64,000 nt of DNA from an uncultured Acidobacteriota bacterium (GTDB taxonomy: Bacteria > Acidobacteriota > Thermoanaerobaculia > Multivoradales > JAGPDF01): positions 58,546 through 122,545 of the forward strand of contig CAVOXC010000006.1 in the NCBI GenBank assembly GCA_963700315.1. The letters are read 5' to 3'. Each line of letters opens with the position of its first letter. Position 1 is the first letter of the stretch. Under the pieces are notes generated by a model that made no database searches, had not been told where the DNA came from, and saw only the letters and a program-made list of their open reading frames with translations. A program made the position numbers and the translations under genes. Shown one piece after another: positions 3,571 through 41,283 of the stretch.

Positions 3571-4719
<1,149 letters not shown>

Positions 4720-23750: not shown

Positions 23751-23886
23751 GATGGTCCATCTTAAAGCCGACCGACCGCCCTCAGCCGCCCGGGACTCGG
23801 AGGAGTAAACTGTCGGCAGGTCTAGGCCGGTCCGGGCGCTGTCCGGAATGGGTCCGGCGCCAGGCGCCTCCCGGCAGGGAGTGCTC

Positions 23887-25392: not shown

Positions 25393-26182
25393 TCAGCGCG
25401 TCGCTGCGGCGAGCTCGCGGGCCTTCTCGACGAACGCCTTGCGGCTGCGGCAGCCGCCGGCGGCGGTGACCAGGGCGCTGCCGACGACGACGCCGTCGGC
25501 GACCTTGGCGACTTCGCGCACCTGCTCCGGAGTCGAGACGCCGAAGCCGACGGCGATGGGGAGCGCGAGCTTGCGCCGCAGCGCGCGCACCTCGCGCTTC
25601 AGATCCTGGCGCACGCTCGCGCGCGCTCCGGTCACACCCGCGCGGCTGACGTAGTAGACGAAGCCGGAGCCCGCATGGGCGACCCGCCGGATCCGCTCCT
25701 TGGTGCTGGTCGGGGCGAGCAGGAAGATCGGGTCGAGACCGCTCGCCGCCGAGCGCGTCGAGATAGGCGCCCGCGGCCTCTTCCGGCGGCAGGTCGACGC
25801 ACAGCACGCCGTCGACGCCGCACTCGGCGGCGTGCTCGGCGAAGCGCTCGACGCCATAGGCCAGGATCGGGTTGCAGTAGCTGAACAGGACGATCGGCGT
25901 CGCGATGCCGCGGCCGCGCAGCCGGGCGATGAGCTCGAAGATCTTCTCGAGCGTCACGCCCTCGGCGAGCGCCCGCTGCGCCGCGGCCTGGATCGTCGGT
26001 CCGTCGGCGATCGGGTCGCTGAACGGCACGCCGACCTCGATCAGGTCGGCCCCCGCCTCGTCGAGCGCGGCGAAGAGCTCCTCGCTCGCCGCGAGCGACG
26101 GGTCGCCGGCGACCAGGAAGGGCACGAACGCCGCGCGCTTCTCGACGCGGCAGAGCTCGAAGACCTCGGCGATCGCGCTCAT
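25393..26182 (-). CDS. trpA: Tryptophan synthase alpha chain (apparent single frameshift near 25740)
   Basis: N-terminal part [28 protein letters not shown]...[15 protein letters not shown] in one frame; C-terminal part [12 protein letters not shown]...[13 protein letters not shown]...AVGFGVS in another. Confidence 0.8.
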
Positions 26183-27624
26183 CGCGAGGGTCTCCGTCCG
26201 AGCCAGCCCCGCCAGCGCGGCGGATCGGGGATCTCGATCCAGTCCTCGTGCTCCGGGCCGGGCAGCTCGACGACGCGCTCGGCCGGCTCCTCTTCGTCGG
26301 CGGCGGCCGGCCGACGCGCGCCGGGCTGGCCACTCTCGCGGCCCGGCATCGGCTCCGGTTCGGCCCGGCGCGCGCGCGGACCACGTCCCCGTTCGCCGGG
26401 CGCCGGCTCGCGCCGAGCCTGCTCGGCGTCGTAGGCGATCACCGACTCGAGGTCCTTGTCGCCCCGGCCCGAGAGGTTGACCACGATCGCGTAGCGCCGG
26501 GGCAGCCGCTTCGCCCGCTTCGCCGCCTCGGCGACGGCATGGGCGCTCTCGAGCGCGGCGAGAATCCCTTCCGTGCGGGCGAGCAGATGAAATGCTGCGA
26601 TCGCCTCGGCGTCCGTCGCCGAGACGTACTCCACCCGGCCGGCGTCGTGGAGCAGCGCGTGCTCGGGGCCGATCGCCGGGTAGTCGAGCCCGGCCGAGAC
26701 CGAGTGCGTCGGCGCGATCTGGCCGTGGCGGTCCTGCAGCAGGTAGGTGCGCGTGCCGTGCAGGACGCCGACGGCGCCGCCCCTGGCCGCGAAGCGCGCC
26801 GCGTGCTCGCCGAGCTCGGTGCCCCGCCCCCCCGCCTCGACGCCGACCAGCCGCACCCGCCGGTCGTCGAGGAAGGCCGAGAAGAGGCCGATCGCGTTCG
26901 AGCCGCCGCCGACGCAGGCGATGGCGCAATCCGGGTTCGGCCGGCCGAGCCGCTGCTTCAACTGCCGGCGCGTCTCCGCGCCGATCACCCTGTGGAAATC
27001 GCGCACCATGCGCGGGAAGGGATCGGGGCCGAGCACCGAGCCGAGGATGTAGTGGGTGGTCGCGACGTTCGTCACCCAGTCGCGCATCGCCTCGTTGATC
27101 GCGTCCTTGAGCGTGCGGCTGCCCGCGTCGACGCCGACGACCTTGGCGCCGAGCAGACGCATCCGCTCGACGTTGAGGTGCTGCCGGCGCATGTCCTCGG
27201 TGCCCATGTAGACGACGCACTCGAGGCCGAGCAGGGCGGCGGCCGTCGCGGTCGCGACACCGTGCTGCCCCGCCCCGGTCTCGGCGATGACGCGCGGCTT
27301 GCCCATGCGCGCGGTGAGCAGCGCCTGGCCGAGGGCGTTGTTGATCTTGTGCGCGCCGGTGTGGAGCAGGTCCTCGCGCTTCAGGAAGATGCGCGCGCCG
27401 CCGAGCTCGCGCGACAGGCGGTCGGCGAAGTAGAGCGGCGTCGGCCGGCCGGCGTAGTTCTTGAGCAGCTCGGCGAGCTCGTCGCGGAAGCGGCGATCGC
27501 GCCGCGCCCGGTCGTAGGCGCGCGCCAGCTCCTCGAGCGGCGCCATCAGGGTCTCGGGCGCGAAGCGGCCGCCGTAGGAGCCGAAGTGGCCGCTAGCGTC
27601 GGGATGGCATCGTCGTCTCGGCAC
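26179..27624 (-). CDS. trpB: Tryptophan synthase beta chain with ~80-aa C-terminal tail
   Basis: [51 protein letters not shown] start. The stop overlaps the trpA ATG (ATGA). Confidence 0.9.
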
Positions 27625-28249
27625 GTCGAATCTCCTCGATCAGCTCTCTCATTCTCTCGCGATCCTTGACGCCAGGGCCACGCTCGACGCCGGAGGCGAC
27701 GTCGACGCCGTCTGCCCCGCTCGCGGCGAGCGCCGCGGCGGCGTGGCCCGGCCGGATGCCGCCGGCGACAAGCAGCGGCCGCGGCCCGCGCCAGCCGGCG
27801 AGCGCCGCGTAGTCCCAGCTCTCACCGGTGCCACCGTATCGCGCTCCAGCGGCGCCGTCGATCAGCGCGCCCCAGACCGGCGGCGTGCGCCCGAGCCTCG
27901 CGACGTCCGGCACGCCCCGGTAGACGCGGATCGCCCGCCCTTCGAGCGCGGCGAAGTCGGCATCGGGCTCGTCGCCGTGGAGCTGGGCGAGGTCGAGGCC
28001 GACCGCCTCGAGCGTCTCTCGCACCGCCTCGATCGGTTCGTTGACGAAGACGCCGACGAGCAGCGCGCCGCGGCCGCGCACGGCGTCGGCGATGGCGCGA
28101 GCGCGCGCCATCTCGACGTGGCGCGGGCTCTCCGGCCAGAAATTGAGGCCGAGCAGGTCGGCGCCGAGCTCGACCGCCGCGAGCGCGTCCCCGTGGCCGG
28201 TGAGACCGCAGATCTTGACCAACCGCCGCTCCGGGCCAGCAACGCTCAC
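27593..28249 (-). CDS. trpF: Phosphoribosylanthranilate isomerase
   Basis: VKICGLT...[11 protein letters not shown]...LAQLHGDE...GGTGESWDY...LLVAGGIRP. Confidence 0.85.
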
Positions 28250-29036
28250 CCGAACAGCTCCGCGAGCTTCGCGGCGGGGTCGCCCGAGACGAGCAGCGCC
28301 TCGCCGACCAGGAACGCCTCGAACCCCGCCGCGCGCAACCGCTCGACGTCGGCGCGCGAGTCGATGCCACTCTCGGCGACCGCGAGCGCGGACTCCGGCA
28401 GCCGCGGGCGCAGCGCGATCGAGTGCTCGAGCGAGACCTCGAACGTGCGCAGGTCGCGGTTGTTGACGCCGACGAGCTCCCAGGCGGAGCCCTCGAGCCG
28501 ATCGAGATCCGCCGCGTCGTGGGTCTCGACCAGCGGCACCAGCCCGCGCGCGCGCGCCGCCCCCGCCCAGGCGGCGAGCTTGGCGGGTGAATAGAGCGCC
28601 GCGATCAACAGGATCGCTGCCGCGCCGGCGGCGACCGCCTCGTCGAGCTGACGCTCGGAAACGACGAAGTCCTTCGCGATCGCCGGCAGACCGGAGGCCT
28701 CTTGGCAGCGCGCCAACAGCTCGTAAGAGCCGAAGAAGAAGTCGGGCTCGACCACCACCGAGAGAGCGGCGGCGCCCGCACCCGCGTACGTTCGAGCCTG
28801 GTTCACCGGATCGAAGCGTCCCGCCAGGGATCCGAGTCGGGGCGAGCCCATCTTGATCTCGGCGATCACCGCCCCGCCTCGGCGAGCGTCCAAAGCTCCA
28901 TAGAAGGGGTTGTCGAGAAGAAGCTTCGGCGCGTCCGCGCTCGGCCCGGTCCGGGCGCTCGTCACGAAGGCCGCGTAGCGCTCGCAGCGCCGTGCGACGA
29001 TGCGACGCAGGACGTCCGGGACCTCGCCGTCCCCCT

Positions 29037-29040
<4 letters not shown>
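28246..29040 (-). CDS. trpC: Indole-3-glycerol-phosphate synthase
   Basis: ATG at 29040. VIAEIKMGSP, LSVVVEPDFF, AIAKDFV, LVETHD, VGVNNRDLRTFEV, AESGI. Confidence 0.85.
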
Positions 29041-30043
<1,003 letters not shown>

Positions 30044-30047
<4 letters not shown>

Positions 30048-30634
30048 CGCGCGGCTCCGGCGTGCTCGGCGCAGAGCGCGAGAAAGTTCTCGACGAGCCT
30101 GGGGCCGGCGACGGTGAGTATGGACTCGGGGTGGAACTGCACGCCCCAGTAGGGCAGCTCGCGGTGGCGCAGCCCCATCACCAACCCGTCGTCCGCGCTC
30201 CACGCCACCGCCTCGAGCTCCGGCGGCAGGCTCGCCTCGCGCACCTCGAGCGAGTGATAGCGGGTCGCCTCGAACGGGCTCGGTAGGCCCGCGAAGAGAC
30301 CTTCGCCACGGTGGCGGATCTGCGAGGTCTTGCCATGCTTCGGCGCCGGCGCGCGGTCGACTTCGGCGCCGAAGGAAACCCCGAGCGCCTGGTGGCCGAG
30401 GCAGACACCGAGAATCGGCAGGTCGGGGCGGCGCGCGAGCAGCGGCAGGCAGACCCCGGCTCCCTCCGGACGCCCCGGTCCGGGCGAGAGCAGGATGCCA
30501 TGCGGCGAGCGTGCCAAGAGCTCGTCGACGCTCGCGGCGTCATTGCGCACGACTTCGTAGTCGGTCCCGGACGCGGCGATCAGCTGCACCAGGTTGTAGG
30601 TGAAGGAGTCATAGTTGTCGACGACCAGGATCAT
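30044..30634 (-). CDS. trpG: Anthranilate synthase component II (glutamine amidotransferase)
   Basis: MILVVDNYDSFTYNLVQ, ILGVCLGHQAL, VQFHPESI. Confidence 0.9.
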
Positions 30635-32097
30635 CGCTCGAGCTCCTCGGCGAGCGCCACGGCGGCCAGCAGCGCCGCGGCCTTGCTCTCGGTCTCGCGC
30701 TGCTCGAGCGCGGGGTCGGAGTCGGCGACGATGCCCGCGCCCGCGGTGACGCTCACTTCCTGCCCGCCCTCGTCGCGGCGGATACAGAGGGTGCGGATGG
30801 TGATGCAGGTGTCGAGGTCGCCGGAAAAGGAGAGGTAGCCGATGGCGCCGGCGTAGGGGCCGCGCGCCTCGGGCTCGAGCGCGTCGAGGATCTCGATCGC
30901 GCGGATCTTGGGCGCTCCGGAGACGGTGCCCGCCGGAAAGGCGGCGAGCAGCGCGTCGAAAGCGCCACGATCCGCGGCGAGCTCCCCCTCGACGCTGGAG
31001 ACCAGGTGCATGACGTGGCTGTAGCGCTCGACCTCGAGGAAGGCCGCGACCTCGACGGTGCCCGGCCGGCAGACGCGGCCGAGATCGTTCCGGCCGAGGT
31101 CGACGAGCATGACGTGCTCGGCGCGCTCTTTGGGATCGGCGAGCAGCTCCTCGGCGATCGCGGCGTCCTCTTCGGCGCTCCGGCCGCGATGGCGGGTACC
31201 CGCGATCGGGCGCGCGACGACGCGATCGCCGGTCTTCTTGACCAGCATCTCGGGCGAGGCGCCGACCAGCGCGATCTCGGGGAGCTCGACGAGCACCATG
31301 TAGGGGCTCGGGTTGACGCGCCGCAGCGCCCGATAGAGCGCCTCGGGCGACGCTGCGGAACGGAGCCGGAAGCGCCGCGCGAGAACGACCTGGAAGATGT
31401 CGCCGGCGGCGATCTGTTCCTTGGCGGCGCGGACCGCGGCCTGAAACTCCTCGCCGGAGAGCGTGGCCTCGGGCTCCCGATCGAGTCTCGGCGGCGAGGC
31501 CGGCAGCCGCACCGCCTGGACCCCGACCTCGCGCGCGAGCGCGGCCTCGAGACGGTCGAGCGCCGCCTCGGCCGCGGCCGCGGCAACCTCCCCCTCGATC
31601 TCGTTGGCGACGAGCAGGAGGCGTTGCTGGGCGTGGTCGAAGGCGACGACGCTGTCGAAGCGGCCGAGAATGGCGACCGGCAGCCCCCAGGGATCGGGCG
31701 GGCGCGCGGGGATGCGCTCGATCAGCCGGACGAGATCGAAGCCGAAGCTGCCGACGAAGCCACCGGCGAACGGCACCGGCGACCCCGGCGCCGAATAGCG
31801 CTCGACCTCGCGCCGCAGTGCCTCGAGCGGCGCGCCGGAGCGCGTCTCGCGGCGGCCCGCGCGCTCGACTTCGAGCCGATCTCCATAAAGACGGTAGATG
31901 GCCGCGGGCGCGGCGCCGAGAAAGCTGTAGCGCGCCACCTGCTCGCCGCCGGTGACGCTCTCGAAGAGGAAACGCACGGGGGAGAGGTCGCGCAGGCGCT
32001 GGTAGACCGCGAGCGGGGTCAGCGTCTCGGCGAGCAGCTCGCGGGTGTGCGGGACGACGCGTCGCTTCCCGCCCTCGGCGACCTCGCTCTCACTCAC
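30631..32097 (-). CDS. trpE: Anthranilate synthase component I
   Basis: LFESV, GDIFQVVLARRF, SPEMLV, RPIAGT, GAPKIRAIEIL, RGPYAGAIGY. GTG start overlapping the hisIE stop. Confidence 0.9.
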   Translation of the reverse strand: MSESEVAEGGKRRVVPHTRELLAETLTPLAVYQRLRDLSPVRFLFESVTGGEQVARYSFLGAAPAAIYRLYGDRLEVERAGRRETRSGAPLEALRREVERYSAPGSPVPFAGGFVGSFGFDLVRLIERIPARPPDPWGLPVAILGRFDSVVAFDHAQQRLLLVANEIEGEVAAAAAEAALDRLEAALAREVGVQAVRLPASPPRLDREPEATLSGEEFQAAVRAAKEQIAAGDIFQVVLARRFRLRSAASPEALYRALRRVNPSPYMVLVELPEIALVGASPEMLVKKTGDRVVARPIAGTRHRGRSAEEDAAIAEELLADPKERAEHVMLVDLGRNDLGRVCRPGTVEVAAFLEVERYSHVMHLVSSVEGELAADRGAFDALLAAFPAGTVSGAPKIRAIEILDALEPEARGPYAGAIGYLSFSGDLDTCITIRTLCIRRDEGGQEVSVTAGAGIVADSDPALEQRETESKAAALLAAVALAEELER

Positions 32098-32735
32098 GAC
32101 GGGCCCCGATGGCGAGCCGCGAGCTCCGCGGCGACCGCCTCGATCGAGACTCCGCGCGCCTGGAGCAGCACGGCGAGGTGAAACAGCAGATCGCTCGTCT
32201 CCTCGACCAGTCGGGCCCTCGCGGCCTCGTCACTACCCTCGGCGGAGAGCGCCGCCACGACGACCTCGGTCGCCTCCTCGCCCACTTTCTGCGCGATACG
32301 GCCCACGCCCTCGCGCAGCAGCCGGGCCGTGTAGCTCTTGCCGGCGTCGGCGCCGGCGCGCGCCGCGACGATCCGTTCGAGCGCGCCCAGGTCGAGGCCA
32401 CCCGGCGCCTCCGCGAAGCAGCTGGCGGTCCCCGAATGGCAGGCGGGCCCCGCGGGGACTACGGCGAGCAGCAGCGCGTCGCCGTCGCAATCGGCGGCGA
32501 CGCCGACCACGCGCAGCGTGTTGCCGGAGCTCTCCCCCTTCTTCCAGAGCCGCTCGCGCGAGCGCGACCAGAACCAGGCCTCGCCGCACTCGAGCGTCCG
32601 CTCGAGCGCCTCGCGATTCGACCACGCGAGCATCAGGACCCGTCCGCTGAAGGCGTCCTGAGCGATCACGGCGATCAAGCCACGATCGTCGAAGCGGAGC
32701 GCCTCGCGATCGAGCGCCAGCGCGAATTCGCTCAT
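32094..32735 (-). CDS. hisIE: Bifunctional phosphoribosyl-AMP cyclohydrolase / phosphoribosyl-ATP pyrophosphatase
   Basis: ATG at 32735. [25 protein letters not shown]...[19 protein letters not shown]...CHSG, then SYTARLL...KVGEEATE...DLLFHL. Confidence 0.85.
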
Positions 32736-33586
32736 GCCGTCCCCTCCCCGCTTGCCGTCGAGCTGTCGCGGACCGGAAAGCCGCGCTCGGCGAGCGCGCG
32801 ATGGATCGCCGCGACGGTGGTCTCGCCCGAGTGGAAGACCGAGGCGGCGAGCACCGCGGCGGCGCCCGCGTCGAGCGCGGCGGCGAAGTCGTCGATCGTC
32901 GCGCCGCCGCCCGACGCGATCACCGGAACCGCGACGCGCATGCAGGCAGCCGCGAGCAGCTCGAGATCGTAGCCCTCGCGCGTGCCGTCCCGGTCGATCG
33001 AGGTGAGCAGGATCTCGCCGGCGCCCCGCGCCACGCCCGCGCCGATCCAGTCGATCGCGTCGATCGCCGTGGGCCGGCGGCCGCCGTGAGTCACCACCTC
33101 CCAACCTCCGTCCGGGCGCCGCAGAGCGTCGACCGACAGCACCACACACTGGCTGCCGAAGCGGCCGGCGAGCTCGGCGAGGAGCCCGGGGCGCGCGACG
33201 GCCGCGCTGTTGATGCCGACCTTGTCGGCGCCAGCCTCGAGCAACGCGCGCGCATCGTCCAGCGAACGCACGCCGCCACCGACGGTGAGCGGCACGAAGA
33301 CGCGCTCGGCCACCCGCTCGACCCACTCGAGCGCCGGGCCGCGCAGCTCGTGCGACGCCGCGACGTCGAGAAAGACCAGCTCGTCGGCTCCTTCGGCGGC
33401 GTAGCGCGCCGCCTGTTCCGCCGGATCGCCGGCATCCACCAGACCCTCGAAGCGCACGCCCTTGACCACCCGTCCCGCCGCGACGTCCAGACAGGGGATG
33501 ACCCGGCGGCAGAGCCGCGTCGGGCCAGGAAAACGGCTGGAGCCATGGGCGAGGGCGCCGGTCTTCGCGCTCTGCGCACTGGTCAC
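32732..33586 (-). CDS. hisF: Imidazole glycerol phosphate synthase cyclase subunit
   Basis: [65 protein letters not shown]. The only in-frame start candidate is GTG at 33586. Confidence 0.8.
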
Positions 33587-34331
33587 GGCTGGACCCCCGC
33601 CATGGACCGCGGCGCTCTCGCACGCCGCGAGCGCATCCTCCAGGGTCACGCGACCCTCGTAGAACGCCCGACCCAGGATCGCCGCGCCGATTCCGGGTGT
33701 CGCCGCCGCTCGACCGAGATCGCCGACCGAGCTCACGCCGCCCGAGACGATTGCCGGGAAGCCGCTCGCGCGGGCCACGCCGGCGGCGAGCTGGAGGTTC
33801 GGTCCCGACAGCATCCCGTCGCGCTCGACGTCGGTCACGAGCACCGCCAGGGCAGGGCAAGCCACGTAGACGATTCGACGCTGCTTGCCAGTGAAGGGAG
33901 GACGACTCGGACCAGCCCGCCACGCGCACCGTTCCGGCGGCGCAATCGAGGGCGGGAACGATGCGACCGGGAAGCGCGGCGGCGAGGGCGGCGAACCCGT
34001 TCGGATCGCGCACCACCATCGACCCGACGACCGCCCGCTCGAACCCCCACGCCAACGCCCGCTCGACAGCCGCAACGCTCCTCAAGCCCCCCCCTAACTG
34101 GCAGCTTTTCAGAACGCCGGAACCGGCGAGACGCCCCAGGATCTCCTCCTGCGCCGCTTCACCGAACGCCGCATCGAGGTCGACGACGTGCACACGCTCG
34201 ACGCCCGCCGCGGCGAACTGTGCGAGCAGCTCGAGTGGCTCCAACGGATAGACGGTGAGGCTGGCGTCGTCCCCCTTCTCGAGACGCACGACCTTGCCGC
34301 GGCGCAGGTCGATCGACGGGATCAGCTCCAC
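33583..34331 (-). CDS. hisA: ProFAR isomerase (apparent frameshift near 33890; 3' end ambiguous)
   Basis: GTG at 34331. [21 protein letters not shown]...VAGWSESSS in one frame; ...[18 protein letters not shown]...IVSGGVSS...[15 protein letters not shown] in the hisF frame, with no stop before hisF. Confidence 0.7.
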
Positions 34332-34942
34332 GCACCCTCCCAGGCGAGGAAGCTCGACAGCATGCGCAGGCCGGCCGCGCCGCTCTTCTCCGGATGAAAT
34401 TGCACCCCCACAACCCGTCCGCGCCCGGCGATCGCGGCGAACTCGCGGCCGTGGAGCGCGGTCGCGATCTGCGACTCGGCCGGCACGCCTTCCGGAGCGT
34501 AGCCATGGACGAAGTAGACCTCGGCCCCGCTGCCCATCCCGTCGAGCAGCGGATGCGATCGCGCGACCTCGATTCGGTTCCAGCCGATCTGTGGCAGCGG
34601 CACTGTCGCCGGCAGCGCGGTCACGCGGCCCGGCAGCAGGCCGAGGCCGTCGGTGGCGCCATGTTCCTCGCCGCTCTCGAACAACAGCTGGTAGCCGACG
34701 CAGATGCCGAGCAGCGTCGCGCCCGCCTCGACCGCCGAGTGGAGCGCACGCTCGAGCGCCCCACGCAGCCGCTCGCGCGGCGGGCGGAAGGCGCCGACTC
34801 CGGGCAGCACGATCCGGCGCGCCGCGGCGAGCTCCGCGGCATCGCTCGTCACCCGCGGCGCGCCGCCGCAGGCCACCAGCGCCCGCCGCACGTTGCCGAG
34901 GTTGCCGACGCCCAGATCGACGATCGCGACGTCGCGGCTCAT
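34322..34942 (-). CDS. hisH: Imidazole glycerol phosphate synthase glutaminase subunit
   Basis: VAIVDLGVGNLGNV, LPGVGAF, LLGICVGYQLL, VQFHPEKSG. Confidence 0.9.
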   Translation of the reverse strand: MSRDVAIVDLGVGNLGNVRRALVACGGAPRVTSDAAELAAARRIVLPGVGAFRPPRERLRGALERALHSAVEAGATLLGICVGYQLLFESGEEHGATDGLGLLPGRVTALPATVPLPQIGWNRIEVARSHPLLDGMGSGAEVYFVHGYAPEGVPAESQIATALHGREFAAIAGRGRVVGVQFHPEKSGAAGLRMLSSFLAWEGAWS

Positions 34943-35547
34943 GCCGTGAGGGTCCCCTTGGTGCTCGGCGGCTCGTCGCTTCCCGCGCGCGCCGCGACCG
35001 CCTGCCGTAGCGCCAGCGCCACGGCCTTGAAGACCGCCTCGGCGACATGGTGCGGGTTGCGGCCGTGGAGCACGTCGACGTGGAGGGTGAAGCGTCCCCG
35101 GTCGGCGCAGGCCTGCAGGAAATCGGCGACGAGCGTCAACGGAAAGAGCCGGGTCACCCAGCTCGCCTCGAGCTCCGGCGACACCCGCCAGGCGAAGAAG
35201 CCACGTCCCGAAAGATCGACCACCGCGCGCGCCAGCGCCTCGTCGAGCGGCGCGTAGGCGTGGGCGAAACGGACGACTCCGCGCCGCTCGCCGAGCGCCG
35301 TCGCGAACGCCTCGCCCAGAGCGATGCCGACGTCTTCGACGGTATGGTGGAGGTCGACCTGGGTGTCGCCGCTCGCGCGCACCTCGAGACCGAGGCCACC
35401 GTGGCTGGCCAGCGCCTCGAGCATGTGGCCGAAGAAGCCGTCCGGGACGTCGATGCGTCGAGCGCCGCCGTCGAGCGTGAGGCGGAGGGCGATCTCGGTT
35501 TCCTGGGTCTTGCGCTGCACTTCGGCGCTGCGTGCGGCTGCGGTCAT
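34939..35547 (-). CDS. hisB: Imidazoleglycerol-phosphate dehydratase
   Basis: RKTQETEIALRL, GFFGHMLE, DLHHTVEDVGIALG, GRNPHHVAEAVFKA. Confidence 0.9.
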   Translation of the reverse strand: MTAAARSAEVQRKTQETEIALRLTLDGGARRIDVPDGFFGHMLEALASHGGLGLEVRASGDTQVDLHHTVEDVGIALGEAFATALGERRGVVRFAHAYAPLDEALARAVVDLSGRGFFAWRVSPELEASWVTRLFPLTLVADFLQACADRGRFTLHVDVLHGRNPHHVAEAVFKAVALALRQAVAARAGSDEPPSTKGTLTA

Positions 35548-36635
35548 GTCGAGATCTCCTCGAGAGCGCGGCGAACGGCACGCAGGGCGTCTCCCCCGGC
35601 GACCGAGACGCGCAGGCAGCGCGCCAAGCCCGGGCCCGCAGAGACGTCGCGCACGCGAATGCCGTGGGCGTCGAACGCGGCGAGCGCACGCGCAAAGCCC
35701 TCTTCGCTCCAACGGGTGAGCAGGAAGTTCGCCTCCGAAGGCAGGACTTCGGCGCCGGCCCGCGCGAACGTCCGCCGCCACCCCTCGCGCCGCGCGACCA
35801 AGAGACGCACACGCTGCTCGGCCCGCCGGGCATGCTCGGGCTCGAGCGCCAGCGCGCCGATCACCGACCCCGCATGGCCGAGGTTGTACGGCAGCTTCAC
35901 CTTGAGGATCTCCGCCACCAGCTCGGGATCGGCGAGCAGGTAGCCGAGCCGGATGCCGGCGAGCGACCAGGCCTTGGAGAAGGTGCGGAAGAGGACGAGC
36001 CGGCGGTGGCGCGCGAGCAGGGGCCGGTAGTCGAAGCGGCAGAATTCGCCGTAGGCATTGTCGAGCAGCAACGGCGCTTCGAGCCGTTCGAGCAGTCGTT
36101 CGACCCGCTCCGGCGCGATCGCCTCGCCGGTCGGATTGTTGGGCGAGGCGAGGAGCACGGGTCGACGCGGATCGCGCTCGATCGCGGCTTCGAGCTCGCC
36201 CAACGGCAGCGCGAGATCGGCGCGCGGGCCGAGCGGGGCGAGCCGCGCGCCGGAGGCCAGCGCGAACAGGGGATAGAGCCCGAACCCCGGCAACAGGGCG
36301 AGCACCTCGCGCCCGGGACCGGCGACAGTGGCGAGCGTCGCGCCCAGCAGCTCGTTCGAACCGTTGCCGACGAGCGTGCCGTCGGTCGTCCAGCCGTGGC
36401 GCGCAGCGAGCGCCGCGCGCAGCGCGTCGGCATGAAAATCGGGATAGCGGCTCCACGAGCGCGCGATCAGCCGCCGCGCCGCCTCCTCCTTGAAGCGCCG
36501 CGAGGGTTCCCACGGGACCTCGTTCTGATCGAGCTTGAAGCGGCCGGGCGACGGCTCGAGCGAATAGGCGCGCAGCGCGCGTACCTCGGCGCGCGCGAGC
36601 CGGGCTCCGGCGGCCGTCGGCGCCGCGCTTACCAT
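35544..36635 (-). CDS. hisC: Histidinol-phosphate aminotransferase
   Basis: KLDQNEVPW, GNGSNELL, SPNNPTG, LLDNAYGEF, RTFSKAWSLAGIRLGY. Confidence 0.9.
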   Translation of the reverse strand: MVSAAPTAAGARLARAEVRALRAYSLEPSPGRFKLDQNEVPWEPSRRFKEEAARRLIARSWSRYPDFHADALRAALAARHGWTTDGTLVGNGSNELLGATLATVAGPGREVLALLPGFGLYPLFALASGARLAPLGPRADLALPLGELEAAIERDPRRPVLLASPNNPTGEAIAPERVERLLERLEAPLLLDNAYGEFCRFDYRPLLARHRRLVLFRTFSKAWSLAGIRLGYLLADPELVAEILKVKLPYNLGHAGSVIGALALEPEHARRAEQRVRLLVARREGWRRTFARAGAEVLPSEANFLLTRWSEEGFARALAAFDAHGIRVRDVSAGPGLARCLRVSVAGGDALRAVRRALEEIST

Positions 36636-37966
36636 GGCTCCTCCGCACCAGCGCCGGCAGGAGCGTCGCGACGCAGCGCCGCGGCTTCGGCATGCGCGGG
36701 CAGGCCTTCGGCGCGGGCGAGGACCTCGGCCGCGCTCGCCAAGCGGTCGAGCGCGGCCGGGCGCACGAGCTCGATCCGGTGCGAGCGGCGCAGGAAGGTC
36801 TCGACGCCGAGCGCCGAGGCGAACCGAGCGCTGCCGCAGGTCGGCAGCACGTGGCTGGGCCCGGCGACGTAGTCGCCCAGCACCGCGGGTGTCGTGGCGC
36901 CGACGAAGAGCGCACCGGCCCGGCGGAAACGCTCGCGCGCCCCCGCCGCCTCCGCCCCCACCAGCTGCAGATGCTCGGGCGCGAGCTCGTCGGCGAGCTC
37001 GACCGCTTCGTCGAGGTCGTAGACCACCAAGGCGCCGCCGCAGGCCCGCAGCGCGGCGCGCGCGCCCGCCGCGGTCGGCAGCCCATCGAGGCGCCGCTCG
37101 ACGGCGCGAGCGACCTCCTGGGCGAAAGCGCGCGCTGTCGTCACCAGCAGCGCCGCGGCGGCCGGATCGTGCTCGGCCTGGGCGAGCAGGTCGGCGGCGA
37201 CCCACTCCGGATCACAAGCCCCCGCCGCGACGATCACCACCTCGCTCGGACCCATCAGGCCATCGATCGCGACGCGGCCCGCGACATGGCGCTTGGCCGC
37301 GGTGACCCAGGCGTTGCCGGGCCCGGCGACGAGGTCGACGCGGGCGACCGAGTCGGTGCCGAAGGCGAAGGCGGCGACGGCGTGAGCGCCGCCCATGCCC
37401 CAGATCTCCGAGATGCCGAGCCGCTCGAGCGTGTAGCGCAGCGCCGGCTGGGCGAGGTAGGCCGGCGCCGGCGTCGCCACCGCGATCTCGGCGACGCCAG
37501 CGACACGCGCGGGCACCACGGTCATGACCGCGGTCGAAGGGTAGCTGGCGCGCCCGCCCGGCACGTAGAGACCGATCCGCGCCAAGGGCTCGACCCGCTC
37601 CTCGATCTCCACCCCTTCGATGGTCGTGACGAACCCGCGCGGAATCTGCCGGCGGGCGCACTCGTCGACGGCGGCGATCGCCTGCTCGAGCGCCTCGGCG
37701 AAGCCCTCCGGAAGGCCGCGCCGCACCCCGTCTCCGGGCAGCGGCCCGAGTCGTAGGGCGTCGATCGACGGCGGGTGCCAGCCATCGTGCTCCGCGACGG
37801 CGGTGAGCAGGGCGCGGTCACCGCCGCGCCGCACGCGCTCGACCAGCTTGCCCGCGTCGCGCTCGAGGCGCCGGTCGAGCACGGCGTCGAAGCGCGCCGC
37901 GAAACGCTCGATGAGCTTGCGTCCGGCCCGGCTCGAGGCCTCGGCGACGCGCAACGCGAGCTTCAC
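36629..37966 (-). CDS. hisD: Histidinol dehydrogenase
   Basis: GTG at 37966. GLYVPGGRASYPSTAVM, AGPGNAWVTAAK, IDGLMGPSEVVIVA, AQAEHD, GDYVAGPSHVLPT. Confidence 0.9.
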   Translation of the reverse strand: MKLALRVAEASSRAGRKLIERFAARFDAVLDRRLERDAGKLVERVRRGGDRALLTAVAEHDGWHPPSIDALRLGPLPGDGVRRGLPEGFAEALEQAIAAVDECARRQIPRGFVTTIEGVEIEERVEPLARIGLYVPGGRASYPSTAVMTVVPARVAGVAEIAVATPAPAYLAQPALRYTLERLGISEIWGMGGAHAVAAFAFGTDSVARVDLVAGPGNAWVTAAKRHVAGRVAIDGLMGPSEVVIVAAGACDPEWVAADLLAQAEHDPAAAALLVTTARAFAQEVARAVERRLDGLPTAAGARAALRACGGALVVYDLDEAVELADELAPEHLQLVGAEAAGARERFRRAGALFVGATTPAVLGDYVAGPSHVLPTCGSARFASALGVETFLRRSHRIELVRPAALDRLASAAEVLARAEGLPAHAEAAALRRDAPAGAGAEEPW

Positions 37967-38592
37967 GCCGCCACCCCCGCGCCTTCGAGGCGTGCGACCA
38001 GCGCGCCGATCTCGGCCCGCAGTGTCTGCCAGGCGGCGCGGTGGACCACCAGGCAGGGGGCGATCTCGCGCACGGTCGCGAGCTCGACGAGACCATGCGC
38101 GCGCAGAGTCTTCCCGGTCGCGACGATGTCGACGATCAGGTCCGAGAGGCCGAGCAGCGGCGCCAGCTCGATCGAGCCCGAGAGCTCCAGGATCTCCGCG
38201 CTCCAGGCCTGGCGCCCGAGGTAACGCTCGGCGCTGCGCGGATACTTGGTCGCGAGGCGCACCTGCTCGCCCGGGCCGGGCAGCCGGGCGCCCGCGGAGC
38301 CGATCAACGCCAGGCGACAGCGCCCGTCGGCGAGCTCGAGCGGCACCAACAGGTCGCCGTCGACCTCGTCGAGCACGTCGCGGCCGACGACGCCGCAATC
38401 GGCGACGCCGCGCTCGACGTAGAGCGGCAGGTCCCGATCCTTGAGCAAGAGGATCTCGAGCCCGGCCGCGGGCAACTCGTGGCGTAGCCGGCGGTCCTCG
38501 AGGTCGAGGCCTGCGAGATCGAAGCCGGCACGCTCGAGCGCCGCGCGAGCGACCTCGAGACTGCGCCCTTTGGGCAGCGCCAGGCGGATCAT
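37963..38592 (-). CDS. hisG: ATP phosphoribosyltransferase, short form
   Basis: MIRLALPKGR, DLPLYVERGVADCGVVGRDVL, RLATKYP, DLIVDIVATGKTLRAHGL. 209 aa, adjacent to hisZ. Confidence 0.9.
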   Translation of the reverse strand: MIRLALPKGRSLEVARAALERAGFDLAGLDLEDRRLRHELPAAGLEILLLKDRDLPLYVERGVADCGVVGRDVLDEVDGDLLVPLELADGRCRLALIGSAGARLPGPGEQVRLATKYPRSAERYLGRQAWSAEILELSGSIELAPLLGLSDLIVDIVATGKTLRAHGLVELATVREIAPCLVVHRAAWQTLRAEIGALVARLEGAGVAA

Positions 38593-39560
38593 CGCCCGAC
38601 CTCGTCGGCGAGCGCACCGAGCCGCAGCGAGAAGCCGACTGCCGCCACCGCCGCGCCGAGCGCCGCGAAGAGACGATCGTAGCGGCCGCCCGCGCCGATC
38701 GGCCGGGCGCGCCCCGGCAGGTAGGCGCGAAAGACCGGGCCGTCGTAATAGGGCCGCAGATCGCGCCCGCGCCCCTCTGCCGCCAGCGTCGAGAAGTCCG
38801 CGAACTCGGCGAGATCGATGCTCGCTTCGACGCCGAGAGCCCCATCGCCCACGGCCGCGGCGATCCCTTCGAGGCGGCCGAGCGCCTCCTCGCCCCGCGC
38901 CCCGAGCGCTCCGGGCCGCGCCGGGGCTCCGCGCTCGACCACCTCCGCGACCGCGGCGCCCGCACCGCGCGCCGCTCCGAGCTCGCGCCGCGCCACGGCA
39001 CGCGCCAGCTCGGGCGCGCGCTCGGCACCGACCGCCCCGCGCAGCAACTCGTCGAGAGCGCCGGCGTGGCCGAGGACGATGCGGGCGCGACCGGGCGCGG
39101 CGATGCCGATCAGGCGGGCGAAGAGCATCGCCGCCTCGAGCTCCAGGTCGGCCGCCTGCTCCGGCGCGCCGAGCAGCTCGCCGCCGAGTTGGTAGACCTC
39201 GATCTCGCGGCGCGCGCCGCGCTCCGGACGGCGCACCACGTCGCCCCGGTAGAAGAGCTTGAGCGGCAGGTCGAGCGCGACGAGGTGCGGCGCCAGCAGC
39301 CGCGCGACGAGGGGTGTGAAGTCGCCGCGCAGCGCGAGCAGCTCGCCGTCGCGATCCGCGAAGCGGTAGAGCTCGGCCCGCGCCGGAGCGGGCAGCAGCG
39401 GCTCGTAGGGCGCGAAGAAGTCGACGACCGGCAGGATCGCCTCGCGCAGGCCCGCTTCCTCGAGAGCCCCGACGAGCTCGCGCTCGAGCGCCCGCAATCG
39501 CGCCGCCGAGTCGAAGAAGAGCGCCGAGACGCCCGCGGGCAGACCGCTCGTCAGCTTCAC
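38589..39560 (-). CDS. hisZ: ATP phosphoribosyltransferase regulatory subunit (HisRS paralogue)
   Basis: 323 aa. LYRFADRDGELLALRGDFTPLVAR, KLFYRGDVVRRPERG..REIEVYQLGGEL. Position upstream of short hisG. Confidence 0.75.
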   Translation of the reverse strand: MKLTSGLPAGVSALFFDSAARLRALERELVGALEEAGLREAILPVVDFFAPYEPLLPAPARAELYRFADRDGELLALRGDFTPLVARLLAPHLVALDLPLKLFYRGDVVRRPERGARREIEVYQLGGELLGAPEQAADLELEAAMLFARLIGIAAPGRARIVLGHAGALDELLRGAVGAERAPELARAVARRELGAARGAGAAVAEVVERGAPARPGALGARGEEALGRLEGIAAAVGDGALGVEASIDLAEFADFSTLAAEGRGRDLRPYYDGPVFRAYLPGRARPIGAGGRYDRLFAALGAAVAAVGFSLRLGALADEVGR

Positions 39561-41044
39561 GCGCGCTCCTCGTCGAGGCCGAGGGCCGCGCGGCCCACCG
39601 CGAGCGGCAGCTCGCGGCCGGTCATCGCGCGGAACTGCGGCAGCGCCTGGCGCAGCAGCACCTCGCGGCCGTCGATCGCCACCAAGCCGCGGCGCGCGGC
39701 CTCGGCGATGAGCTGGGTCGGCGCTTCACCGTAGACCAGGTCGACCACCGCCGAGCCCGCGGGCAGTCGGGCCACCGGCAGCGGCAGCTCGTCCGCGGGC
39801 GCGCGGCCGAGCGGCGTCGCATGGACGAAGAGGTCGAAGCGAGACGGGTCGAGCTCGGCGAGCGTCACGAAGGGGAGCCCGAGCGCGCGAGCGGCGGAGA
39901 GCCCCCGCTCCTCGCCCCGATTGACGACGACGACCTCGGCGCCCGCGAGCGCCAGACCGAGGGCCGCCGCTCGGCCGGCGCCACCGCAACCGATGACCGC
40001 CGCGCGGCGGCCGCGCGGTTCGACGCCGCGCGCCCGAATCGCCTCGACAGTGCCCTCGGCGTCGGTCGACTCCCCTTCCCAGACCCCCGAGCGTACCGTC
40101 AGGGTGTTGACCGCTTGCAGCCGCTGTGCGAGCGGGCTGGTGGCGCCGGCGACGGCAAAGGCGACGTCCTTGTGCGGCGTGGTCACCGAGAGGCCGCCGA
40201 GCGGCAGGCCGATCCGCGCCGGCACCGTGGACTCGACCAACTCGAGCCAGAAGTCGGCGAACGAGGGGACCTCGAAGGGCACGTAGAGCGCCGGCACGCC
40301 CAACGCCCGGTAGGCCGCGTTGTGCAGGCGGGGTGAGAGCGAGCCGACGACCGGGTCGCCGACCACGCCGAAGAGCGCTCGCGCCGCGGGCAACTCGGGA
40401 ATGCCGTAGTCGCGCTCCAAGCGGTCCAGCGAGATCTGCCCGGGCGCCGCCGGTTGCTCGCCCGCGGAGGCATAGACGACGCGCGCGCCGAGCCGGGGCG
40501 CGACGAGGCGGGTCCAGACCCCGACCGCGCCCGCCGCGAAGGCCACCACGTCGCGGCGGTCGAGGTCCGCCAGCAGGGCGAGCGGGACCAGATCCTCGCC
40601 GGAATGCGCGGCGGTCGGCACCAGCTTGTAGAGCGCGGCGGGGGTCTCGGCGAGATGCGTGAAGCGCGCCCGCAGTCCGGCGAGGTCGGTCGCGGCACCG
40701 TGCCAGGAGACGATCCGCCGCTCGGGCGGAATCGCCGCGAGCACGTCGGGCACGAGATCGCGGTCCGCCTCGAGGTCGACCCGGTCGTAGCGCGGCGCCA
40801 CCGCCACCAGCCGCATGCGCCGCCGTTCGCGCGACCCGCCGAATCCCCCGCCCTCGTGGCGGCTGCGCAGGGTGTAGACGATCTCGCCCGGAAAACGGGC
40901 GCGGAGCCAGTCGGGATCGACGTCACCGATCCGGTCGGCGCGCACCTCGAGCGCCTCGGCGCGCCCGGCGAGCGCGGCGATCTCCTCGCCGCCGCTCGAC
41001 GGGGGCTCGACCAGCGAGACGATCCGGGTGACGCGTTCGCTCAA
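39557..41044 (-). CDS. aroDE: Bifunctional 3-dehydroquinate dehydratase (type I) / shikimate dehydrogenase
   Basis: N-terminal ALEVRADRIGD...IVYTLRS (DHQase I-like). C-terminal FGVVGDPVVGSLSPRLHNAAY, LSVTTPHK, VNTL, IGCGGAGRAAA. TTG start at 41044. Confidence 0.75.
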   Translation of the reverse strand: MSERVTRIVSLVEPPSSGGEEIAALAGRAEALEVRADRIGDVDPDWLRARFPGEIVYTLRSRHEGGGFGGSRERRRMRLVAVAPRYDRVDLEADRDLVPDVLAAIPPERRIVSWHGAATDLAGLRARFTHLAETPAALYKLVPTAAHSGEDLVPLALLADLDRRDVVAFAAGAVGVWTRLVAPRLGARVVYASAGEQPAAPGQISLDRLERDYGIPELPAARALFGVVGDPVVGSLSPRLHNAAYRALGVPALYVPFEVPSFADFWLELVESTVPARIGLPLGGLSVTTPHKDVAFAVAGATSPLAQRLQAVNTLTVRSGVWEGESTDAEGTVEAIRARGVEPRGRRAAVIGCGGAGRAAALGLALAGAEVVVVNRGEERGLSAARALGLPFVTLAELDPSRFDLFVHATPLGRAPADELPLPVARLPAGSAVVDLVYGEAPTQLIAEAARRGLVAIDGREVLLRQALPQFRAMTGRELPLAVGRAALGLDEERA

Positions 41045-41076
41045 AACGAAAACCTCCTTCCGGGCCCGGAAGGAGG
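41043..41076 (-). terminator. Intrinsic terminator / SD-sequestering hairpin directly before the aroDE start (attenuator terminator)
   Basis: Minus strand CCTCCTTCCG-GGCC-CGGAAGGAGG (perfect 10-bp stem) followed by TTTTCGTTTT. The 3' arm carries the GGAGG Shine-Dalgarno, 8 nt before the TTG start. Confidence 0.7.
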
Positions 41077-41144
41077 TTCGTCGAATCGACGGATCTGGAT
41101 CGCCTCGCCCCGGGCCTTGCGGCCGGGACGGAGAGCCCCGGCCG

Positions 41145-41228
41145 TCAGCTCACCGCATGGTGATGGCCGGAGCGGCGCCAGCAGAGCGAGCGACTCGAGA
41201 GCGCGCGAAAACGGTCCGTTCCGATCAT
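41145..41228 (-). CDS. Candidate 27-codon leader peptide with HHH and W
   Basis: ATG ATC GGA ... TGC TGG CGC CGC TCC GGC CAT CAC CAT GCG GTG AGC TGA = MIGTDRFRALSSRSLCWRRSGHHHAVS. It lies between a promoter-like element and the terminator. No SD (possibly leaderless). Confidence 0.5.
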   Translation of the reverse strand: MIGTDRFRALSSRSLCWRRSGHHHAVS

Positions 41229-41237
41229 CGGACGCGG

Positions 41238-41266
41238 ATCACATCACCCGCTCCCGGCGCTGTCAA
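41238..41266 (-). promoter_or_regulatory. Candidate sigma-70-type promoter of the leader/supraoperon
   Basis: Minus strand TTGACA (41266-41261), 17-nt spacer, TGTGAT (41243-41238); 9 nt before the leader ATG. Confidence 0.4.
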
Positions 41267-41283
41267 GGGGCGCTCGAGCGCTT

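Follow-up and report, generated by a model that had tools for sequence, protein, structure and literature searches.

The window, i.e. the whole stretch of 64,000 nucleotides analysed here, carries on its minus strand an operon of 17 genes, which begins with aroDE, coding for a fused 3-dehydroquinate dehydratase / shikimate dehydrogenase, and continues with nine his genes and then seven trp genes, with no intergenic gaps and with a 4-nt overlap between hisIE and trpE. A gene for a lipoprotein-like product lies upstream, its stop being located about 200 nt 5' of the hairpin which precedes aroDE. The G+C content of the window is 70.7%, a value at which long ORFs often arise by chance; apart from the one described below, canonical hairpin-plus-U terminators are rare in the window. 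A previous, sequence-only reading had proposed that the region in front of aroDE contains a promoter with a 17-nt spacer, a 27-codon leader ORF with three His codons and one Trp codon, and a 10-bp terminator hairpin with a U-tract, whose 3' arm includes the aroDE Shine-Dalgarno sequence. All these elements were found on the minus strand where they had been placed, and are reported in Table 1 together with the segments able to form alternative pairings.

Table 1. Features of the aroDE leader region and of the downstream operon. Positions refer to the window.
Feature	Position	Strand	Description
-35 hexamer TTGACA	41261..41266	-	Read from sequence
-10 hexamer TGTGAT	41238..41243	-	17-nt spacer from the -35 hexamer
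Leader ORF (predicted)	41145..41228	-	27 codons plus TGA, MIGTDRFRALSSRSLCWRRSGHHHAVS; ATG at 41228, stop TGA at 41147-41145
Putative regulatory Trp codon TGG (UGG)	41178..41180	-	11 codons before the stop
Putative regulatory His codons CAT CAC CAT (CAU CAC CAU)	41157..41165	-	Codons -6 to -4 from the stop
Segment A	41165..41173	-	GCTCCGGCC / GCUCCGGCC, contains CCGGCC; predicted to pair with B or D if the ribosome is absent (anti-antiterminator)
Segment B	41135..41143	-	GGCCGGGGC, contains GGCCGG; begins 1 nt past the stop codon
Segment C	41121..41129	-	GTCCCGGCC / GUCCCGGCC; pairs with B or D
Segment D, candidate antiterminator arm	41103..41116	-	GGCCCGGGGCGAGG; mimics terminator loop and 3' arm, pairs with E
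Intrinsic terminator (predicted)	41043..41079	-	Arm E CCTCCTTCCG / CCUCCUUCCG at 41076-41067, loop GGCC, arm F CGGAAGGAGG at 41062-41053
Terminator U-tract	41052-41043	-	TTTTCGTTTT / UUUUCGUUUU; directly after arm F
aroDE Shine-Dalgarno GGAGG	41053..41057	-	Inside arm F, 8 nt upstream of the TTG
aroDE start TTG (UUG in RNA)	41044-41042	-	Located in the U-tract
aroDE	39557..41044	-	Fusion gene identified by NCBIfam scan; homologues align from residue 1
hisZ-G-D-C-B-H-A/F-IE-trpE-G-D-C-F-B-A	25460..39560	-	Remaining operon; genes overlap or abut

Comparison of relatives revealed that most related loci have TTGACA 5' of the leader ATG, its distance taking a few recurring values. In the relatives from the clade of the window, the -10 hexamer reads TCTAAT, TCGAAT or TGGAAT at the same spacing, and the ATG follows 8-10 nt beyond. 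We infer a sigma-70-type promoter, with transcription starting few bases 5' of the leader ATG; since in the window this ATG lies only 9 nt past the -10 hexamer, the leader mRNA is probably leaderless or nearly so.

Orthologous leaders were collected by using a nhmmer profile, which replaced an earlier regex detection, found to overlook about one third of them. The profile matched 101 distinct leader ORFs, located 5' of orthologous operons in Thermoanaerobaculia, Holophagales and other Acidobacteriota MAGs. The lack of a conserved His/Trp mini-ORF in related genomes had been indicated as an argument against attenuation; the mini-ORF is in fact kept in all these 101 leaders. The leader is present in most of 167 related loci, where AroDE is only 50-73% identical, regardless of the gene found upstream. 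Promoter, ORF and hairpins accompany aroDE or hisZ as a unit, next to varying upstream neighbours, among them lhgO and genes for ETF-QO and VapB; in loci with aroDE apart from hisZ, it is hisZ that the leader precedes. These comparative data contradict the idea that the hairpin just terminates the upstream lipoprotein-like gene, or acts as a stabilising stem-loop, the HHH mini-ORF being a chance ORF: the distance from the upstream stop and the abundance of long chance ORFs at this G+C content would suit it, but the unit moves with aroDE or hisZ whatever the upstream gene, and a consensus TTGACA promoter is interposed between that gene and the hairpin, so that this explanation can hardly be maintained.

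The 101 leaders are short predicted ORFs of 22-40 codons, lying in the 5' leader past the promoter, which start with ATG and end at the first hairpin arm. Their 3' portion has a common layout: one to three Trp codons, present in nearly all of them and located 8-11 codons 5' of the stop, then three or four His codons, then about three codons and a stop abutting the first hairpin arm, the distance of three codons between the last His and the stop being a conserved feature. At least one Trp is found in the last 14 codons of nearly all leaders, the exceptions (L085, L093 and L094) belonging to one subclade; L019, L043 and L047 have three Trp codons each. The ORFs are thus enriched in codons for the two end products of the operon. 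Trp accounts for 12.7% of the last 14 residues, compared to 0.1% in the N-terminal part, and His for 20.5%, compared to 1.6%. The enrichment depends on the reading frame, as in the last 16 codons of the 101 ORFs TGG occurs 180 times in frame, versus 18 and 11 times off frame, and CAY 291 times in frame, versus 28 and 6. Both His codons are used, with synonymous variation, and CAU represents 68% of the leader His codons, versus 23-29% in ordinary genes. The presence of only three His codons, fewer than in hisL, had been considered a weakness of the attenuator hypothesis; it is no such thing, three or four being the norm of the family. To judge from this pattern, the single Trp codon of the window is a conserved regulatory codon, not an incidental one.

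The His run follows the gene content of the operon, being decayed where the his genes have left it. At least three His codons are present in 44 of 45 his-containing loci, versus one of nine aroDE-trpE loci (Fisher p = 7.6e-8, kinship ignored); in the latter, Trp codons are retained while the His run decays. The same pattern is repeated in a second set, derived from metagenomes, where a decay series HHH -> HHR -> PHR is observed inside one clade. In the AroDE tree, aroDE-trpE lineages without a His run are interleaved with his-containing ones, implying that the run was lost in several independent events. Two loci do not conform: L066 is an aroDE-trpE locus which retains HHH, and L082, the only locus confirmed as aro-his with trp genes absent, keeps one Trp codon. 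For the Trp-less leaders L085 and L093, the five contigs examined all end after hisAF or earlier. The decay of His codons after his-gene loss, with persisting Trp codons, amounts to a natural experiment, which backs the attenuation model without laboratory work; if the model is true, it would also be a natural demonstration that leader codons stay under selection only while their cognate genes are downstream.

These observations bear on a different kind of sensor, in which attenuation would depend on a protein or a small ligand: the conserved CCCGG/CCGGG segments would bind a protein of the TRAP or HutP kind, or fold into a riboswitch aptamer, the mini-ORF being incidental. Such a sensor would not be expected to produce a shift of the regulatory codons with operon content, nor would it account for an ORF conserved in frame, start and stop position, with in-frame Trp and His codons, the latter variable at synonymous sites. 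It could explain the near invariance of the sequence from B to E, which goes beyond what pairing would need. A scan of the window against Rfam at the gathering score yielded no leader-family match, and a permissive scan of positions 40800-41500, with E up to 10, no leader family either, His_leader (RF00514) and Trp_leader (RF00513) included, which makes an undescribed aptamer formally possible. The permissive matches obtained (RNAI, ncS037 and similar) are at chance level, driven by the terminator hairpin, and were rejected. Neither an Rfam T-box match nor a T-box core motif was found in the leader, and a search in it for a TRAP site, i.e. 9-11 (G/U)AG triplets spaced 2-3 nt apart, revealed no chain longer than one triplet. 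On the whole, a protein or ligand sensor is regarded as very improbable.

A predicted intrinsic terminator separates the leader ORF from the first structural gene. Its stem consists of 10 perfect pairs, 13 in the extended form, and folds at -29.5 kcal/mol (z = -4.9 versus shuffles); for the whole 211-nt leader, z is -3.6. It is the sole strong hairpin-plus-U-tract site in the 64 kb, the other matches having 5-8 pairs and occurring at the rate expected from shuffles. In the relatives, E:F is 98% paired, with four compensatory pairs, values not reached by any of 500 shuffles. The relatives also keep the arrangement of GGAGG, 7-8 nt and UUG. The inclusion of GGAGG within arm F and of the UUG start within the U-tract, conserved as it is, could indicate a purely translational switch, in which E:F would hide the Shine-Dalgarno sequence of aroDE, the U-rich stretch being just the spacer and start-codon region; the ribosome-binding site would be opened or closed through translation of the leader, with no premature termination. 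The rarity of other canonical terminators in the window would agree with this, as would locus L007, in which the hairpin is kept directly behind the promoter without a leader ORF. However, with its perfect, G+C-rich stem of 10-13 bp and UUUUCGUUUU directly after it, the hairpin has the canonical form of an intrinsic terminator, which occurs only here in the window, and the U-run is retained in loci in which aroDE starts further downstream (e.g. L001, L025 and L028). A switch acting on translation only is therefore considered unlikely; most likely, masking of the ribosome-binding site is a layer added to termination, the two modes not being exclusive.

The pairings which could control this terminator were analyzed by folding and by alignment. 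Two of those suggested by the sequence-only reading are present as described, namely that of B with C and the antiterminator candidate D, which is identical to GGCCCGGAAGGAGG at 11 of 14 positions, thus resembling the 3' arm of the terminator, and also pairs with arm E. The scheme has to be completed by adding a C:D hairpin, absent from it. For the pairing proposed between CCGGCC and GGCCGG the complementary segments exist, but in the untranslated RNA of the window A mainly sequesters D, not B; a family-wide conserved A:B pairing was sought across the leaders and not found, strong pairing of A being restricted to the lineage of the window. Across leaders, a median gap of 1 nt separates the stop codon from the core of B; in the window, the core as defined by regex begins 3 nt past the stop, while segment B itself begins after 1 nt. 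Folding energies are -18.7 kcal/mol for B:C, -19.4 for C:D and -27.0 for the D:E region.

C:D is the hairpin found in the consensus of the whole alignment, with compensatory changes at columns 74:99 and 75:98. The RNAalifold consensus is made up of C:D and E:F, is 98.5% paired and includes six pairs with compensatory changes, and again none of 500 shuffles reached the observed values. Of the competing helices, the core of B:C is paired in 37-38 of 38 sequences and that of D:E is 94% paired in the same number of sequences, with covariation at column pair 91:152. Covariation is weak for B:C and D:E, because their stems are almost invariant: on four of five measures, 4-51 of 500 shuffles reach the observed values and, for the count of further pair types, 305 of 500.

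The effect of translation was modelled on transcripts ending before arm F emerges, by masking the RNA covered by a ribosome at each A-site position, with 3' footprint limits of +9, +12 and +15. Pair-specific probabilities of D:E, C:D and A:D were used as readout; a cruder one on truncated transcripts, the pairing of arm E with any partner, was dropped because long-range pairing with the 5' end confounded it. For the window without a ribosome, the predicted probability is 0.55 for A:D and 0.04 for D:E. When the A site is placed at the Trp codon, at the codon which follows the third His (Ala) or anywhere between them, D:E is predicted at 0.31-1.0, the lone low value, 0.31, being obtained at the second His with the +12 footprint and every other stall value being at least 0.63. 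With the ribosome at the last one to three codons, depending on the footprint, or at the stop, C:D becomes prevalent (0.6-0.8) and D:E falls to 0.12 or less. The switch, which the earlier reading had suggested checking by folding with and without the leader masked, is stable over the three footprint limits. In 43 leaders, the median D:E probability drops from 0.74-0.78 at codons -4 and -3 to 0.17, 0.05 and 0.01 at -2, -1 and the stop, respectively. In the model, therefore, an exclusive antiterminator depends on ribosome position, the change between D:E and C:D occurring right after the His run. In many relatives, the model gives about 50% antitermination for RNA that is not translated. When the full leader was folded at equilibrium with ribosome masks and arm F present, the terminator won at every ribosome position, so that this kind of folding does not discriminate between them; the switch would therefore have to be kinetic, like that of the trp leader in E. 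coli.

The conserved mini-ORF, its codon content tracking operon content and the folding models all support the layout of classical leader-peptide attenuation, as had been suggested for this locus, and we regard it as highly probable that the element is a ribosome-mediated transcription attenuator sensing two amino acids, Trp and His. Transcription would start from the sigma-70-type promoter just 5' of the leader ATG. A shortage of either charged tRNA-Trp or charged tRNA-His would stall the ribosome at UGG or at CAU-CAC-CAU, with A masked and B free, so that B:C would form and D be left unpaired. Free D could then capture the terminator 5' arm E and the loop, once transcribed, and the terminator would be blocked; RNA polymerase would enter aroDE-his-trp, with arm F and the aroDE Shine-Dalgarno sequence single-stranded. 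When both amino acids are plentiful, the ribosome would reach the last codons or the stop and mask B; C:D would form, leaving E:F to form in turn, and transcription would end in the U-tract. In untranslated RNA of the window, A would sequester D, favouring termination again.

A survey of attenuation across bacterial phyla was reportedly made by Lopatovskaya, Seliverstov and Lyubetsky in 2010. Leader-peptide attenuation is documented in Proteobacteria, Actinobacteria, some Firmicutes and Deinococcus (PMC2965389, PMC1262725, PMC4007540), and almost none of the attenuators predicted in Acidobacteria is reported to have an assigned function (PMC2965389). In the literature searched, no earlier description was found of the family, of a Trp plus His specificity or of an Acidobacteriota attenuator. 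We are inclined to consider the family as the first of leader-peptide attenuators in Acidobacteriota, in which a leaderless sensor of Trp or His would combine termination with ribosome-binding-site masking in front of a 17-gene aro-his-trp operon, its codon set being re-tuned when the his block, and possibly the trp block, is lost. If this is true, the mechanism extends to a large, mostly uncultured soil phylum, and an operon fused from two unrelated pathways would be regulated by merging two regulatory codon sets in one leader. The alignment can serve directly as the seed of a new RNA family and in the annotation of small ORFs in Acidobacteriota MAGs.

Among known systems, the enterobacterial hisL leader (Rfam His_leader, RF00514) resembles the element in its leader ORF with a His run, in the intrinsic terminator that precedes the first his gene and in its alternative hairpins, three pairs in succession (A:B, C:D and E:F versus B:C and D:E); termination when the leader is untranslated, as predicted for the element, is also common to the two. 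The two differ in that no sequence or covariance-model similarity is detected, His codons are three or four here and seven in hisL, and Trp codons are added; moreover, the Shine-Dalgarno sequence of the first gene is contained in the terminator arm of the element, which is probably leaderless and precedes a fused aro-his-trp operon in Acidobacteriota. Leaderless precedents are the trpEGD leader peptide of Deinococcus deserti (PMC4007540) and the poly-Cys attenuator ORFs of mycobacteria (bioRxiv 10.1101/834739). In the trp leaders of E. coli (trpL, Trp_leader RF00513), actinobacteria and Deinococcus, Trp codons similarly lie shortly 5' of the leader stop, and ribosome position selects antiterminator or terminator. 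They differ from the family, which has no Rfam match and is distinct in sequence, with five or six interacting segments and with Trp codons located 8-11 codons before the stop and followed by the His run.

In E. coli, multivalent attenuators control thr (Thr and Ile), ilvGMEDA (Ile, Leu and Val) and ilvBN (Val and Leu), and starvation for any of the amino acids relieves termination. In these cases too, one leader peptide contains codons for more than one amino acid; however, they serve one branched pathway, whereas the Trp and His pathways are separate and linked only by operon fusion, and the relatives trim the codon set after a gene block departs. The aromatic supraoperon of Bacillus subtilis likewise gathers aro, trp and one his gene in one transcription unit, and combines transcription attenuation with Shine-Dalgarno sequestration, as is predicted here; there, the sensor is a protein, TRAP, acting on 11 (G/U)AG repeats which are absent from the present leader, whereas here it would be the translating ribosome.

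Re-reading of the minus strand recovered every feature that the sequence-only reading had listed upstream of aroDE, which encodes a 3-dehydroquinate dehydratase / shikimate dehydrogenase fusion. By folding, the terminator hairpin region reaches -29.5 kcal/mol (z = -4.9) and the 211-nt leader has a z of -3.6. A pattern search identified the attenuator site as the sole strong hairpin-plus-U-tract in the 64-kb window (70.7% G+C), the remaining hits having 5-8 pairs each and the frequency expected from shuffles. The leader features are not a product of chance.

Features of the leader and of its flanking genes, in window numbering
Feature	Position	Strand	Remark
Upstream ORF, 134 aa	41284-41688	minus	signal or lipobox-like N-terminus (LLCLGAAAC)
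-35 TTGACA	41266-41261	minus	sequence read
-10 TGTGAT	41243-41238	minus	17-nt spacer from TTGACA
Leader ORF MIGTDRFRALSSRSLCWRRSGHHHAVS	ATG 41228, stop TGA 41147-41145	minus	sequence read
Single leader Trp codon	41180-41178	minus	sequence read
Leader His codons CAT CAC CAT	41165-41157	minus	sequence read
Segment A GCTCCGGCC	41173-41165	minus	pairing segment
Segment B GGCCGGGGC	41143-41135	minus	pairing segment
Segment C GTCCCGGCC	41129-41121	minus	pairing segment
Segment D GGCCCGGGGCGAGG	41116-41103	minus	pairing segment
Terminator arm E CCTCCTTCCG	41076-41067	minus	then loop GGCC
Terminator arm F CGGAAGGAGG	41062-41053	minus	after loop GGCC
U-tract TTTTCGTTTT	41052-41043	minus	directly 3' of arm F
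aroDE start TTG	41044-41042	minus	GGAGG 8 nt upstream, within arm F
aroDE	39557-41044	minus	first gene of operon

Related loci were collected through AroDE homologues in three sets: 80 loci came from bacterial and archaeal genomes, one genome per species, a further 80 from metagenome contigs taken with flanks of 10 kb, and 11 were found by exact AroDE homologue sequences. The region 5' of aroDE is strikingly conserved, even at AroDE identities of 50-73%, and shows in order a His-codon run, the stop, GCCGGG..GTCCCGGC, GGaCCCGGGACGAG, a variable spacer and CCTCCTTCCGGGtCCGGAAGGAGGTTTTCGTTTT. A leader profile derived from 38 aligned leaders detects exactly one site in the window and one in most loci. 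The gene 5' of the element varies from genome to genome, which indicates that promoter, mini-ORF and hairpins move together with the biosynthetic genes as a single block. In five genomes (L020, L024, L034, L052, L065) aroDE and hisZ are separated by 0.3-2.5 kb; there the leader is immediately 5' of hisZ, and aroDE is without one.

Two loci depart from this arrangement. L088 (metagenome contig ERZ1292633.5677) carries the leader twice, in front of a lone aroDE (tail AEAGWRGLIQNRMS, 1 Trp, 0 His) and in front of trpEGDCF (tail GWWRRSVHRVA, 2 Trp, 1 His), the element having apparently been duplicated or redeployed upon the operon split. At L007 (about 3900-3975), an aroDE-trpE locus, the promoter TTGACA-17-TCGAAT nearly adjoins the conserved hairpin that holds the Shine-Dalgarno, and its U-run; leader ORF and segments B, C and D are all missing. 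The hairpin might thus act independently of a leader, for instance by hiding the ribosome-binding site or making the RNA more stable.

The aro-his-trp supraoperon postulated in the sequence-only reading is real. On the minus strand, aroDE is followed by hisZ, hisG, hisD, hisC, hisB, hisH, hisA/F and hisIE, then by trpE, trpG, trpD, trpC, trpF, trpB and trpA; the genes abut or overlap (by 4 nt at hisIE/trpE), leaving no room for internal regulatory regions. Compared with the proteins of relatives, hisA(F) appears split across two frames at about 33849-33877 and trpA at about 25740-25748, both on the minus strand; these apparent frameshifts may stem from indel errors in the assembly or reflect genuine pseudogenisation within the leader-controlled operon. 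At the related locus L083 a 180-nt gap (19880-20061) separates hisIE from trpE, against the 4-nt overlap in the window, and might house a promoter inside the operon or another regulatory element; a search of the locus with the leader profile gave no additional leader copy. 3' of the operon, a 762-aa ORF (21726-24014, minus strand) combines a Ser/Thr protein kinase domain with an FGE-sulfatase/EgtB-like C-terminal domain. The ORF upstream of the leader has no Pfam or NCBIfam match; its C-terminal motif VSAGPDGELGNDDD resembles those of type II secretion pseudopilins. Judging from these 64 kb, this 70.7% G+C genome, which protein matches place in the Thermoanaerobaculia, phylum Acidobacteriota, seems to have few canonical intrinsic terminators at its gene ends.

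Mini-ORFs rich in His and Trp codons are conserved 5' of the orthologous operons. The leader ORFs number 101 distinct sequences with lengths of 22-40 codons (median 28), and all of them stop within a few bases of segment B. Within their last 16 codons TGG occurs 180 times in frame, against 18 and 11 off frame, and CAY 291 times against 28 and 6. Trp accounts for 12.7% and His for 20.5% of the last 14 residues, whereas the N-terminal parts contain 0.1% Trp and 1.6% His. The C-terminus typically reads AWGWRAHHHSVS, GWWGHAHHHAVI, CWRSSAHHHAH or GWWWHGVCHHGS, and in the window CWRRSGHHHAVS. Trp codons vary in number and position, and His is encoded by both codons; CAU makes up 68% of His codons in leaders, against 23-29% in the operon genes and in the aroDE genes of the first 80 related loci, a preference for the rarer codon which might adjust how sensitive the leader is or keep additional G+C pairs from forming.

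TTGACA is found among relatives at a few recurring distances from the leader ATG. In the window's clade the ATG is located 8-10 nt past a TnnnAT -10 hexamer without a Shine-Dalgarno in front of it, so that the mRNA probably starts at or very near this codon, making the ORF leaderless or almost so. Leaderless precedents are described in Deinococcus deserti (PMC4007540) and mycobacteria (bioRxiv 10.1101/834739).

Comparison of the leader tails with the genes that follow them provides a natural experiment. In the first 80 loci, at least three His within the last 14 residues were found in 44 of 45 leaders of his-containing loci and in one of nine leaders of aroDE-trpE loci, where his genes are absent (Fisher p = 7.6e-8, uncorrected for phylogeny). 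All nine of the latter keep Trp codons, as in the tails CWRDRGQRLVT, PWRWRGVVHAFGVS, CWRRHVQRRAS and RRWWAYAQPYV. On a neighbour-joining tree of AroDE, aroDE-trpE lineages are interleaved with his-containing ones, pointing to several independent events. The metagenome set follows the same pattern, with 12 more aroDE-trpE (or trpE-only) loci having 0-2 His, and one clade displays a decay series from HHH (L066) through HHR (L111, L114) to PHR (L095, L102). The full aro-his-trp arrangement is present in eight relatives with sufficient downstream flank, each with three or more His and one or more Trp. These tails show that His codons follow his genes.

A corresponding dependence of Trp codons on trp genes is only suggestive. 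An aro-his locus lacking trp genes (L082) keeps one Trp codon, a persistence to be expected, as aroDE itself feeds tryptophan synthesis; two of its relatives (L085, L093) and the hisZ-linked leader of L094 have no Trp, their contigs being too short downstream to reveal any trp genes. In three aroDE-trpE loci (L057, L109, L154) the tail CWWSYAQPYV has two Tyr beside two Trp codons and no His; the Tyr codons may serve the sensing of a second aromatic amino acid, or be there by chance.

The leader RNA segments A to F can form a terminator (E:F), an antiterminator (D:E), a competing hairpin (C:D) and an alternative pairing (B:C). RNAalifold, applied to the 38-leader alignment, returned C:D plus E:F as the consensus fold, a form that is 98.5% paired and has six pairs with compensatory double changes, values reached by none of 500 shuffles. 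The form B:C plus D:E is 87.7% paired on the same alignment (cores 94-100%), and its covariation is small because the stems are nearly invariant; its column pair 91:152 is AU in 15 leaders, GU in 7 and GC in 6. The observed values of this form were reached by 4-51 of 500 shuffles on four of five measures, and by 305 of 500 for the count of further pair types. Segment D mimics the terminator loop and 3' arm; its pairing with E extends across about 13 positions. For the window sub-sequences spanning each pairing, the minimum free energies are -29.8 (A to B), -18.7 (B:C), -19.4 (C:D), -27.0 (D:E) and -18.1 kcal/mol (E:F). The geometry is also conserved: the gap between stop and B core has a median of 1 nt, and three codons stand between the last His and the stop.

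With arm F present, equilibrium folding always yields the terminator; the decision must therefore be kinetic, as in classical attenuators. Transcripts ending ahead of F were folded with a mask for the ribosome placed in turn at every A-site codon, and a switch between D:E and C:D with ribosome position is predicted. Without a ribosome, predicted probabilities in the window are 0.04 for D:E, 0.55 for A:D and 0.98 for B:C. For every A-site position between the Trp codon and the codon that follows the third His, both included, D:E rises to 0.31-1.0, the lowest value being that of His-2 with the +12 footprint and all others at least 0.63. A ribosome whose A-site has reached the last 1-3 codons or the stop (how far depends on the footprint) covers B; C:D is then 0.6-0.8 and D:E does not exceed 0.12. 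The prediction stands whether the 3' edge of the footprint is set at +9, +12 or +15. In a set of 43 leaders, D:E has a median of 0.74-0.78 for codons -4 and -3, falling to 0.17, 0.05 and 0.01 at -2, -1 and the stop; the His run, codons -6 to -4, occupies the last positions where a stall still keeps the antiterminator.

Comparative and modelling evidence thus supports the attenuator interpretation, and ribosome-mediated attenuation is the likely mechanism. The antiterminated form would also expose arm F, the aroDE Shine-Dalgarno, and read-through transcripts in which the terminator hairpin has folded would be translated inefficiently; a second, translational layer may operate through this arm.

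No Rfam family matches the window at the gathering score, and a permissive scan of 40800-41500 gave chance-level matches only, caused by the terminator hairpin. Neither a TRAP-type triplet chain nor a T-box core was found in the leader, and the element belongs to none of the Rfam leader families. No prior description of it was found in the literature searched, which did not cover the 2010 survey by Lopatovskaya and colleagues. A genome-wide survey predicted attenuators in Acidobacteria, almost none with an assigned function; by its own account, leader peptides were at that time known solely from Proteobacteria and Actinobacteria, the survey itself adding Firmicutes hisS (PMC2965389).

The proposed mechanism is that of a textbook leader-peptide attenuator, and the nearest layout is the his leader of Salmonella and E. 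coli. The element differs from known leaders in combining Trp and His codons, matching the fusion of two unrelated pathways; in its few regulatory codons (1-3 Trp, 3-4 His); in its probably leaderless initiation; in a terminator arm that is also the ribosome-binding site of the first gene; and in its host phylum, the Acidobacteriota.
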